From Escherichia coli (GTDB taxonomy: Bacteria > Pseudomonadota > Gammaproteobacteria > Enterobacterales > Enterobacteriaceae), in NCBI RefSeq assembly GCF_003334785.1, contig NZ_QOWV01000002.1: DNA of 64,000 nucleotides; one strand, written 5' to 3'. The notes beneath the pieces are model-generated. The model was not told where the DNA came from and did not search any database. It saw only the letters and a program-made list of their open reading frames with translations. The position numbers and the translations under genes are program-made. Positions 2,582 through 59,777 of this stretch are shown one piece after another (position 1 is the first letter of the stretch; every line of letters starts with the position of its first letter).

Positions 2582-4521
2582 TGCCAGAAATTGGTAACGG
2601 ACTGCTGTGCCTGGCGCTGGGAATTGCGCTGCTGCTGTCCGTGTATCCGCTATGGGGCGTGGCGCGCGGAGATGCGCGCATGATGGCGTCTTCCCGCTTG
2701 TTTGCCTGGCTGCTGTTTATGTCTGTGGCTGGCGCATTTCTGGTGCTGGTCAATGCTTTCGTGGTCAACGACTTCACCGTCACCTATGTTGCCAGCAACT
2801 CCAATACCCAGCTTCCGGTGTGGTATCGCGTGGCGGCTACCTGGGGCGCGCATGAAGGCTCGCTACTGCTGTGGGTGCTGCTGATGAGCGGCTGGACCTT
2901 TGCGGTGGCGATTTTTAGTCAGCGTATTCCGCTGGATATTGTGGCCCGTGTACTGGCGATAATGGGGATGGTCAGTGTCGGCTTTTTGCTGTTCATTCTC
3001 TTTACCTCTAACCCGTTCTCTCGCACGTTGCCGAACTTCCCGATTGAAGGTCGCGATCTTAACCCGCTATTGCAGGATCCGGGGCTGATCTTCCATCCGC
3101 CTCTGCTTTATATGGGGTACGTGGGTTTCTCGGTGGCGTTTGCTTTTGCCATTGCTTCTTTGCTGAGCGGGCGTCTGGACAGCACTTATGCGCGTTTTAC
3201 TCGTCCGTGGACGCTGGCAGCGTGGATCTTCCTGACGCTCGGCATCGTGCTCGGTTCCGCATGGGCCTATTACGAACTCGGCTGGGGTGGCTGGTGGTTC
3301 TGGGATCCGGTAGAAAACGCCTCGTTTATGCCGTGGCTGGTGGGGACTGCGCTGATGCACTCACTGGCGGTCACTGAACAACGCGCCAGCTTCAAAGCGT
3401 GGACATTACTGCTGGCAATCAGTGCCTTCTCGTTGTGTCTGTTGGGGACTTTCCTCGTGCGTTCCGGCGTGCTGGTATCGGTACACGCGTTTGCGTCTGA
3501 TCCGGCGCGCGGTATGTTTATCCTCGCCTTTATGGTGCTGGTGATTGGCGGTTCGCTGCTGCTGTTTGCCGCGCGTGGACACAAAGTTCGCTCACGCGTA
3601 AACAATGCGCTGTGGTCGCGGGAATCTTTGCTGTTAGCGAACAATGTTTTGCTGGTCGCTGCGATGCTGGTGGTGTTGCTGGGGACGCTGCTGCCGTTGG
3701 TGCATAAGCAACTGGGACTGGGCAGTATTTCGATTGGCGAACCGTTCTTCAACACCATGTTTACCTGGCTGATGGTGCCGTTTGCGCTACTGCTTGGTGT
3801 CGGTCCTCTGGTGCGCTGGGGGCGGGATCGCCCGCGTAAGATCCGCAATTTATTGATTATCGCCTTCATCTCTACGCTGGTGCTGTCGCTGCTGTTGCCG
3901 TGGCTGTTCGAAAGCAAAGTTGTGGCGATGACGGTGCTCGGCCTGGCAATGGCCTGCTGGATTGCGGTGCTGGCAATTGCGGAAGCTGCGCTACGTATTT
4001 CACGCGGCACGAAAACCACCTTCAGTTATTGGGGGATGGTGGCGGCTCACCTTGGGCTGGCAGTGACAATTGTTGGCATTGCCTTTAGCCAGAACTATAG
4101 CGTTGAGCGTGATGTGCGCATGAAGTCCGGCGATAGCGTCGATATTCATGAATATCGCTTCACCTTCCGTGATGTCAAAGAGGTGACTGGCCCGAACTGG
4201 CGTGGCGGTGTGGCGACTATCGGCGTAACGCGCGATGGCAAGCCGGAAACGGTGCTGTATGCGGAAAAACGTTATTACAACACTGCCGGGTCGATGATGA
4301 CCGAAGCGGCAATTGACGGCGGCATCACGCGTGACCTGTACGCGGCCCTCGGTGAAGAGCTGGAAAACGGCGCGTGGGCCGTGCGTCTTTACTACAAACC
4401 ATTTGTTCGCTGGATTTGGGCGGGCGGGCTGATGATGGCGTTGGGCGGACTGCTGTGTCTGTTTGATCCTCGCTATCGTAAGCGCGTGAGTCCGCAAAAA
4501 ACTGCGCCGGAGGCCGTATGA
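2578..4521 (+). CDS. ccmF: Cytochrome c-type biogenesis protein CcmF (heme lyase component)
   Basis: 647-aa polytopic membrane [23 protein letters not shown]...; ATGA overlap with ccmE. Confidence 0.95.
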
Positions 4522-25659: not shown

Positions 25660-25690
25660 AAAACAAAAAAGCACTGCCTAAGCAGTGCTT
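25660..25690 (-). terminator. Intrinsic terminator downstream of mepS
   Basis: On the minus strand: gcactgc-ttag-gcagtgc followed by ttttttgtttt. Confidence 0.65.
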
Positions 25691-25737
25691 TCAGTTAACT
25701 CGTCAGGATAGCCAAGGGATTGCATCCAAACGGTTTA

Positions 25738-26304
25738 TTAGCTGCGGCTGAGAACCCGGCGTGCTTCGTTGTAACGCTTCTTCCAGTACGGTTCATTCAT
25801 GCTGGAAATAATAACACCACTGCTGGTGGAAGCATGGACAAACTGATTGTTGCCGATATAAATACCGACATGGCGTCCCGTTGAACCGGCACGGAACAGA
25901 ACTAAATCACCCGTACGCAAATTACTGCGGGAAACAGATTTACCCATTTCCTGCTGTTCGTAAGTCGAACGCGGAAGTTCTAAGCCAAATTGCTCACGGA
26001 ATGTACGCTGTACGAAACCAGAACAATCGATACCTTTTTTAGTGCTGCCGCCCAGACGATAACGTACGCCTTTCCAGTCAGCATACTGATCCATAATTCG
26101 CGATTTTACGTCGACATTACGAACCAGGTTTTCAAATTCATCCTGAGAAGCTTGCAGTGATGATGTTTCACTACCCACTGCACGTGTCTCAGGATGCATA
26201 TTCTTTGCGGTGTTATTTGCACTACATGCAGAAAGCAGAACCGCTACTGCAATCGCGGGAATCCCGCGCAAGATATATCTCAAAATCGGTTGAGATTTGA
26301 CCAT
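25738..26304 (-). CDS. mepS: Murein DD-endopeptidase / lipoprotein MepS (Spr), NlpC/P60 family
   Basis: 188 aa, lipobox LLSAC, NlpC/P60 catalytic region [12 protein letters not shown]...HVGIYIG. Confidence 0.95.
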
Positions 26305-26715
26305 GTTGTTTGTTTTCCCTTGAAGTCCTTAACGACAAATATCGTTATAAAAAAATGCCAAGCGACACGAGACTAATTACCTGGGCATGTTGAAACAATT
26401 CCTTAAGGCCAAATCTGTGGACTAACGCACAAAATTATATGCTGTGAGGATAATCTACCGCCGAGGCAAAACGAGTTCGAGATTACCCGATTGGTGCGGT
26501 CTTGGCGAGCGGTTTTACATGATTTTTTATAAGAAAAAGTGATACAGAAAGTTAATAAGCGGGGTTGGTCAATTAAAGTACAATTGAGTGAAACGCATGC
26601 AATCCATTCATTTACTTAGAGAATGATTTTTGCGTTCGATAGATGAAAGCACGGTGCGCATCATCAGGATTATCCTCACTATAAAAATAACCCTGATGAT
26701 GTTAATTACTGTGAG

Positions 26716-27429
26716 TTATTTGTTTTGGAAATGTTTGTTTTTTCCTGGTAGTGATTTGTCAAAAAAGGTGATTAATCGATCACTTAATGGCGTCAGCAAC
26801 ACCCAGGGCAAACCGATCAATATCACGGTCATCGAACCGACAATGATGTCAGTAAACCAGTGTGCGCCAATCATTACTCTGGGAAATGCAAAAACCACAA
26901 AAATAATAAGGGCGATAAGGCCTGCAACTTTGCCGAAATAACGCCACATGAATGCCGAAAAAATAAGCAGCATCATGCCGTGATCGCCGGGAAAGCTATC
27001 TCGTGAGGCATCTTTCGTGGGAACAGAGAGCAGTTCGCTGACGCGGTTAATATCGGTAAAAGTCAATGTTGGGCTGGCCCGTTTTACAGGAATTAATGCC
27101 TGACCCAGCTGGTTTAATACCACTGCAGTTAATAGCATGACCAGACCAATAATCACGATACGTCGTCTGCCAGGGGCGTTTTCTTTCAGCCAGAAACTCA
27201 GCATCAACATACCCATCGCCAGCAGTGAACAACCGTCGAAGGCGCGATTGTTGGTCAATGCAACCAGCCACAAAAAGGCCTTACTTTCGACCAGTTTCTG
27301 ATTAAAGAAATAAAAAATATCCGCATCAATCGGCAACCAGAATCCATGATTAACGGGGATATACCAGGAAAGAAACAGCGCGAGGCCGACAATATTCAAC
27401 AACACTATTTGCGGCAAATTTTTAATCAT
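26716..27429 (-). CDS. lpxT: Lipid A 1-diphosphate synthase LpxT (YeiU), PAP2 family
   Basis: 237 aa from the ATG at 27429 (MIKNLPQIVLLNIVGLALF...); PAP2 motifs (PSGH-like, SRDSFPGDH). Track ORF starts 12 codons earlier. Confidence 0.92.
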   Translation of the reverse strand: MIKNLPQIVLLNIVGLALFLSWYIPVNHGFWLPIDADIFYFFNQKLVESKAFLWLVALTNNRAFDGCSLLAMGMLMLSFWLKENAPGRRRIVIIGLVMLLTAVVLNQLGQALIPVKRASPTLTFTDINRVSELLSVPTKDASRDSFPGDHGMMLLIFSAFMWRYFGKVAGLIALIIFVVFAFPRVMIGAHWFTDIIVGSMTVILIGLPWVLLTPLSDRLITFFDKSLPGKNKHFQNK

Positions 27430-59598: not shown

Positions 59599-59777
59599 TG
59601 TAGGCCGGATAAGGCGTTCACGCCGCATCCGGCAACAGGAGCCAAATGCCGGATGCAACGCTGGCGCGTTTTATCCGGCCTACAATAAGCTCAACATACT
59701 GATTTGTATGGTTTTGTAGGCCGGATAAGGCGTTCAAGCCGCATCCGGCGACAGGAACCAAATGCCGGATGCGTCTC
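59599..59777. repeat. BIME cluster: three to four REP elements in two tandem units of about 115 bp, between mglC and preA
   Basis: gtaggccggataaggcgttcaCgccgcatccggcaac and gccggatgcaacgctggcgcgttttatccggcctaca, then a second copy gtaggccggataaggcgttcaAgccgcatccggcgac plus a partial gccggatgcgtctctgg. Confidence 0.8.

Follow-up and report, generated by a model that had tools for sequence, protein, structure and literature searches.

Intrinsic termination in Escherichia coli is strongly dependent on a U-tract, and the 3' ends that it produces usually lie about 7-9 nt beyond the stem of the terminator. Intergenic palindromes of the REP/BIME type are able to stop 3' exonucleases. A further kind of 3' structure has been described for Rho-dependent transcripts of E. 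coli, whose steady-state 3' ends are precise and lie directly after stable stem-loops that carry no U-tract (Dar & Sorek 2018, NAR 46:6797). Such stem-loops are followed by a mild enrichment of C over G, and they guard the message against PNPase and RNase II following diffuse termination downstream (Dar & Sorek 2018, NAR 46:6797).

Here, we describe an inverted repeat between the genes lpxT and mepS, located in a window, i.e., the whole stretch of 64,000 nt of E. coli DNA that was analyzed. The repeat is like the stem-loops of Rho-dependent transcripts in that a stable U-less hairpin lies near the stop codon of a weakly expressed gene, with a precise RNA end directly 3' of it and an excess of C over G thereafter. 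It is unlike them in that the hairpin clearly has its origin in a canonical terminator still present in relatives, and in that the action of Rho and the trimming of the transcript are predicted steps at lpxT. With canonical intrinsic terminators it shares its position and its orientation, and it is homologous to hairpins with U-tracts in Klebsiella and other genera; however, in E. coli the U-tract is missing, the inner part of the stem is rich in A/U and G-U pairs instead of G+C, and the RNA ends 3 nt past the stem. Like a REP or BIME it is an intergenic palindrome able to stop 3' exonucleases, but it is present in a single copy, does not fit the REP consensus and keeps a syntenic position in different genera. 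The lpxT hairpin is thus a previously unannotated member of a well-described class, the terminator-derived, U-less 3' stem-loops. We assign a probability of about 0.78 to the reading that the repeat is the 3'-end-forming stem-loop of the lpxT mRNA, whether that end is formed through Rho or by intrinsic termination.

Results

The DNA of the window is that of E. coli K-12, and a sequence comparison showed that the 6 kb around the repeat are identical to MG1655. Window positions (w) were converted to coordinates of NC_000913.3 as K12 = 2269567 + (26716 - w). Both neighboring genes are encoded on the minus strand of the window: lpxT, the gene whose transcript ends at the hairpin, occupies 26716-27426 with its stop codon at 26716-26718, and mepS occupies 25738-26304 with its ATG at 26304. 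A previous reading of the window made from the sequence alone (hereafter, the sequence-only reading) had reported a perfect inverted repeat formed by catcatcagg (26659-26668) and cctgatgatg (26692-26701), and both 10-mers were found exactly at these positions. That reading had placed the repeat just 3' of lpxT and upstream of mepS, which is correct; its distances of 15 bp from the stop codon and about 360 bp from mepS, in an intergenic region of 410 bp, were recomputed as 14 nt from the stop codon and 355 bp from the mepS ATG, in an intergenic region of 411 bp (26305-26715). The 14-nt linker between the lpxT stop codon and the hairpin (26702-26715, minus strand) contains a conserved AATTAAC motif, which lengthens the stem in some Citrobacter.

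Next, we considered how often a repeat of this kind occurs. Perfect 10-nt inverted repeats with a spacer of 3-30 nt numbered 12 in the window, compared with 1.9 +/- 1.3 in first-order Markov simulations. A bare 10-nt inverted repeat is not rare, and roughly one in six of those in the window could be due to chance. The lpxT repeat was judged to be real because of its extended pairing, its conservation, and the transcript end that maps to it. The lpxT-mepS interval (421 bp) gave one match in each of the 5,426 complete E. coli genomes, and the repeat itself was found in one place per genome and once per locus in relatives. A dispersed repeat or REP element was ruled out by this single copy per E. 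coli genome and per relative locus; the sequence-only reading, which had called the element not REP-like, was right on this point, given the single copy and the lack of a REP consensus. The window-wide count of inverted repeats also brought up a REP-like cluster elsewhere in the window, at 59625-59764 (GCATCCGGCA, CCGGCCTACA).

An inverted-repeat search extended the DNA arms to 15 nt, of which 14 (93%) are complementary, with 13 nt between them. In RNA of the lpxT sense (window minus strand), positions 26659-26701 (K-12 2269582-2269624) fold into an uninterrupted 20-bp stem closed by a 3-nt loop, UAG, with a folding energy of -25.8 kcal/mol (z = -5.4); none of 200 shuffled sequences was as stable as the minus-strand fold. 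The outer part of the stem consists of 10 Watson-Crick pairs, including five G-C pairs, and its inner part is A/U- and G-U-rich, being closed on the lpxT-sense RNA by four or five G-U pairs. Folding of the complementary RNA strand is less complete and leaves A-C mismatches (z = -4.3). The structure is larger than the 10-bp repeat first described, both as DNA (arms of 15 nt) and as RNA (a stem of 20 bp). The 23-nt A/T-rich spacer had been taken as a loop too long for a terminator. This argument fails, since most of the spacer is paired and the RNA loop is only 3 nt long. The trait that truly sets the hairpin apart from terminators is the absence of a U-tract. A stem of 20 bp is also longer than expected for a typical terminator hairpin. 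A scan of the intergenic region with Rfam covariance models returned chance-level matches only (eukaryotic snoRNA and miRNA families), with E >= 0.47 and scores far under the gathering scores.

To compare the locus between species, an LpxT-based scan of species-representative genomes was performed, yielding 80 Enterobacteriaceae loci. mepS is the next gene after lpxT in 78 of the 80, and the spacer between them is near-constant at about 413 nt. The first 110 nt past each lpxT stop codon were folded, and a hairpin was accepted if its energy was <= -11 kcal/mol and it lay <= 45 nt from the stop. By this rule, a stable hairpin lies just 3' of the lpxT stop codon, typically at about 10-30 nt, in at least 71 of 79 loci; three of the apparent exceptions do contain the core palindrome, at an unchanged coordinate. 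The core CAUCAGGGAUCG-UUUU-CGAUCCCUGAUG is common to most genera. The Escherichia hairpin retains only the outer arms, into which an A/U-rich inner stem has been inserted, and its stem is longer than in other genera. The sequences of Salmonella (AUUACCUUCAGCGAUGG...) and Atlantibacter (AAACCGCCA...UGGCGGUUU) are unrelated, yet these fold at the same place. In Enterobacter, Kosakonia, Lelliottia and others, the core hairpin carries two symmetric GATC (Dam) sites (loci L024-L081, about 3720-3757; e.g., L044 3731-3754); the K-12 version has none.

Covariation was evaluated on an alignment of 52 sequences (alignment A1), in which 15 pairs were scored. Compensatory changes on both sides of the stem were found at 12 of these pairs. 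The covariation score was 0.302, compared with 0.127 +/- 0.010 for shuffled alignments (0/500 reached the real score), and it fell to <= 0.10 when the partners were slid by 1-3 columns. Judging from this alignment, the conserved trait is base pairing and not base identity. The counts of G-U (32) and A-C (30) combinations in the same alignment were uninformative. Conservation in other Enterobacteriaceae and mapped transcript ends were among the checks proposed in the sequence-only reading; for the former, the hairpin is kept across the family with compensatory changes, and the latter are considered below.

The comparison also bears on the U-tract and on the strand. In E. coli, a stable hairpin follows soon after the end of the transcription unit, 14 nt past the lpxT stop codon, as in an intrinsic terminator; however, the tail past its stem is CGCACCGUGC, with one U in 8 nt where about five or more would make it U-rich. 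For lack of a T-run after the stem, the E. coli hairpin was not called as an intrinsic terminator by the scan of the window. On the lpxT-sense strand, a U-tract comes after the homologous hairpin in Klebsiella, Raoultella, Atlantibacter and Pseudenterobacter, and in several Enterobacter and Lelliottia, and the hairpin passes the terminator scan in these groups, with the canonical form seen in K. oxytoca, Atlantibacter and Pseudenterobacter. No U-tract was found in Escherichia or Citrobacter. When the same rule was applied everywhere, terminator-like sites were present on the sense strand of 22/79 loci versus 7/79 on the antisense strand. These comparisons indicate that the E. coli hairpin descends from an intrinsic terminator conserved at this place across the Enterobacteriaceae; its U-tract has gone in Escherichia and Citrobacter, and in Escherichia its stem has grown to 20 bp.

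Folding energy was considered as a further indicator of strand and was dropped for the family as a whole, as the initial comparison had used hairpins picked on the sense strand. With fixed 80-nt regions, the sense strand had no energy advantage across the family, and the antisense strand was slightly more stable; the asymmetry holds only for the inner stem of K-12. The strand was assigned because of the U-tracts in relatives and the RNA end mapped by Term-seq.

This RNA end is found in a published dataset. In MG1655 grown in LB to OD600 0.4, Term-seq placed a 3' end at 2269627 on the plus strand, with an average count of 1323 (Adams et al. 2021, eLife 10:e62438, PMC7815308, supplementary file 1, curated set); the flanking sequence is ATTAACATCATCAGGG...CCTGATGATGCGC|ACCGTGCTTT (PMC7815308). 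The steady-state RNA 3' end corresponds to position 26656 of the window (minus strand), 3 nt past the base of the stem. It is missing from the sheets for LB at OD600 2.0 and for M63, i.e., it was called in one of three growth conditions and at a low count (PMC7815308), consistent with weak expression of lpxT. The "primary" class of that study is limited to ends no more than 50 bp away from a stop codon (PMC7815308), and the 2269627 end was tagged "orphan" only because it lies at +60 nt from the lpxT stop, past this limit. The published orphan end can now be assigned to lpxT, and the lpxT 3' UTR is thereby defined as 60 nt. Of the readings first offered for the repeat, a structured 3'-UTR element gains support from this end and from the covariation across genera. 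The feature that marks the Dar & Sorek stem-loops, a precise 3' end directly after a U-less stem, is present at lpxT in one condition and at a low count.

If the hairpin acts alone, then the mapped end could be the termination point itself. According to this alternative, the hairpin is a weak, non-canonical intrinsic terminator that needs no U-tract for the transcript to be released at or just past the stem, and the end has perhaps lost a few nucleotides to nibbling. Its stem is very stable, several genera have a canonical intrinsic terminator as its homolog, and Adams et al. list no Rho termination region at the locus; however, with a single U among the eight nucleotides of its tail the hairpin was not called by the window scan, and the mapped end lies closer to the stem than the distance usual for intrinsic termination. 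We consider this alternative unlikely, though a serious one. Under either route, the preferred reading of the repeat as the 3'-end-forming stem-loop of lpxT stands.

The length of the duplex raises a different question, namely whether the lpxT hairpin is a target for an enzyme or a protein. RNase III needs two helical turns of duplex, a length to which the unbroken stem of about 20 bp comes close, and the Escherichia stem is longer than those of other genera. The Escherichia duplex might then be a target of RNase III, or of a ProQ-type RNA-binding protein, that sets the decay of the lpxT mRNA beyond passive protection of its 3' end. However, the mapped 3' end lies outside the stem and not inside it, lpxT is absent from the RNase III target tables examined, and no link between ProQ and lpxT was found in the literature. 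Such a role is improbable.

The sequence past the hairpin was then inspected for features of Rho-dependent transcripts. The C/G ratio is 1.4-3.0 over w26658-26481 and peaks at 3.0, with 8% G, at w26598-26501; the region is also A/T-rich. Enrichment of C over G downstream of the stem-loop, a rut-like feature of the Dar & Sorek class, is thus present at lpxT. By its base composition, the untranslated C>G stretch past the hairpin (26501-26658, minus strand) is a candidate Rho-loading region. The Rho termination regions of Adams et al. 2021 (supplementary file 2) include no entry in 2,269,400-2,269,999, a comparison that has low power for a gene expressed as weakly as lpxT. Searches for lpxT and mepS together with terminators, in TERMITe 2025, in SMRT-Cappable-seq data and for bicyclomycin with mepS yielded nothing for the lpxT-mepS locus.

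On the other side of the intergenic region, mepS has two promoters, giving short and long leaders (Elgrably-Weiss et al. 2024, RNA 30:124, PMC10798246). The OxyS site occupies G37-G47 of the short mepS mRNA and G146-G156 of its long counterpart (PMC10798246), from which numbering the two starts would lie near w26364 and w26473. The hairpin would then be outside the known mepS leaders, with the mepS starts about 190 bp (P2) and 300 bp downstream of it.

These positions bear on two readings in which the repeat serves as DNA. The first, the dimeric protein-binding site that the sequence-only reading had offered as an option, takes the palindrome for the site of a dimeric regulator acting, e.g., on mepS or lpxT. 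Many genera show strong sequence conservation of the core TCAGGGATCG-N4-CGATCCCTGA, loop included, and folding energy shows no strand asymmetry across the family, both of which speak for an operator. However, the paired positions covary rather than hold their identity, and the spacing of the outer half-sites varies, from about 23 nt in E. coli to about 14-16 nt in Citrobacter and Enterobacter. Moreover, Salmonella and Atlantibacter have exchanged the whole sequence for unrelated palindromes, U-tracts occur on one strand only, other intergenic blocks are at least as conserved, and the site would be about 190 bp upstream of the P2 start, the nearest known mepS promoter. An operator is disfavored by these observations and is highly improbable.

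In the second reading, the sequence would also serve as a promoter, TTAACA-16-TATAGT (minus strand, 26705-26678), giving a third mepS transcript with a very long leader. Although it matches the sigma-70 consensus at 10/12 positions, a single match of this quality is in line with shuffled sequences, in which 1.6 are expected. In addition, the -10 hexamer, which falls in the hairpin loop and in the insert specific to Escherichia, lacks conservation beyond E. coli, and the genome-wide start-site studies cited in PMC10798246 give only two mepS promoters, both downstream. A promoter here is highly improbable. The formation of the lpxT 3' end remains the preferred account of the repeat.

Several further features of the mepS side were observed. 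Some intergenic blocks are more than 90% conserved across genera of the Enterobacteriaceae, e.g., 26545-26520 (CACTTTTTCTTATAAAAAATCA) and 26612-26595, both upstream of mepS P2; they are candidate mepS regulatory sites. Adams et al. 2021 also mapped Term-seq 3' ends 4-6 nt before the mepS start codon (w26308-26310; K-12 2269973/2269975) and inside mepS (w26147; 2270136), which point to mepS RNAs that derive from the leader or end prematurely. mepS itself ends in a canonical terminator at 25663-25691 (AAAGCACTGCTTAGGCAGTGCTTTTTTG), with a Term-seq 3' end at K-12 2270620, in contrast with the U-less hairpin of lpxT. Finally, the 3' arm of the hairpin (26668-26679) is matched perfectly over 12 nt by its reverse complement at 26444-26455 (GATTATCCTCAC / GTGAGGATAATC), which corresponds to about nt 18-29 of the long (P2) mepS leader. 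A rough estimate, in which about 88,600 position pairs are divided by 4^12, puts the chance expectation for 421 nt at about 0.005 matches of 12 nt. The half of the match in the hairpin lies in the Escherichia-specific insert, and the match may be a coincidence or a small inverted duplication.

Discussion

Herein, we describe the route by which the lpxT 3' end may be formed. Most RNA polymerases would probably read through the E. coli hairpin. Transcription would then stop in the untranslated, C>G and G-poor stretch before the mepS promoters, most likely through Rho. In the next step, 3'-to-5' exonucleases (PNPase, RNase II) would trim the tail until they are blocked by the hairpin, which would thereby fix the precise end 3 nt past the stem and stabilize the lpxT message. 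In this arrangement, the hairpin would also shield the mepS promoters, about 190-300 bp downstream, from read-through of lpxT. We infer the Rho step, the exonuclease trimming and the insulation of the mepS promoters from the likeness of the locus to the Dar & Sorek stem-loops and from its layout.

The lpxT and mepS transcription units are set apart by a conserved hairpin. Across the Enterobacteriaceae, one orthologous terminator hairpin differs between genera: in some the U-tract has been kept, and in Escherichia and Citrobacter it has been lost, the type of change expected in a shift between intrinsic 3'-end formation and formation by Rho plus trimming. It is also conceivable, if quite improbable, that the long U-less duplex was remodeled from the ancestral terminator into a regulated element, e.g., a decay switch sensitive to RNase III or ProQ or a conditional read-through point, coupling lpxT to mepS. 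If so, the expression of lpxT, which acts in lipid A phosphorylation, would be coupled to that of a peptidoglycan endopeptidase, MepS. The 12-nt match between the 3' arm and the mepS leader might in that case provide an alternative pairing in read-through transcripts.

Within E. coli, the hairpin is retained. The whole 421-bp interval is >= 95% identical in all the genomes, while a 101-nt query is 90-95% identical in 991 of them. One position of the stem is polymorphic (G/C/T, at the first G-U pair), and the change opens a single-base mismatch. The approximately 40 nt directly 3' of the hairpin (26620-26658) are more variable within E. coli than the rest of the interval. In one strain, E. coli 20A24 (NZ_CP147044.1), the 3' arm of the hairpin is interrupted by an IS1A element (L085 1564-2330), a natural disruption allele in which lpxT is parted from its stem-loop.
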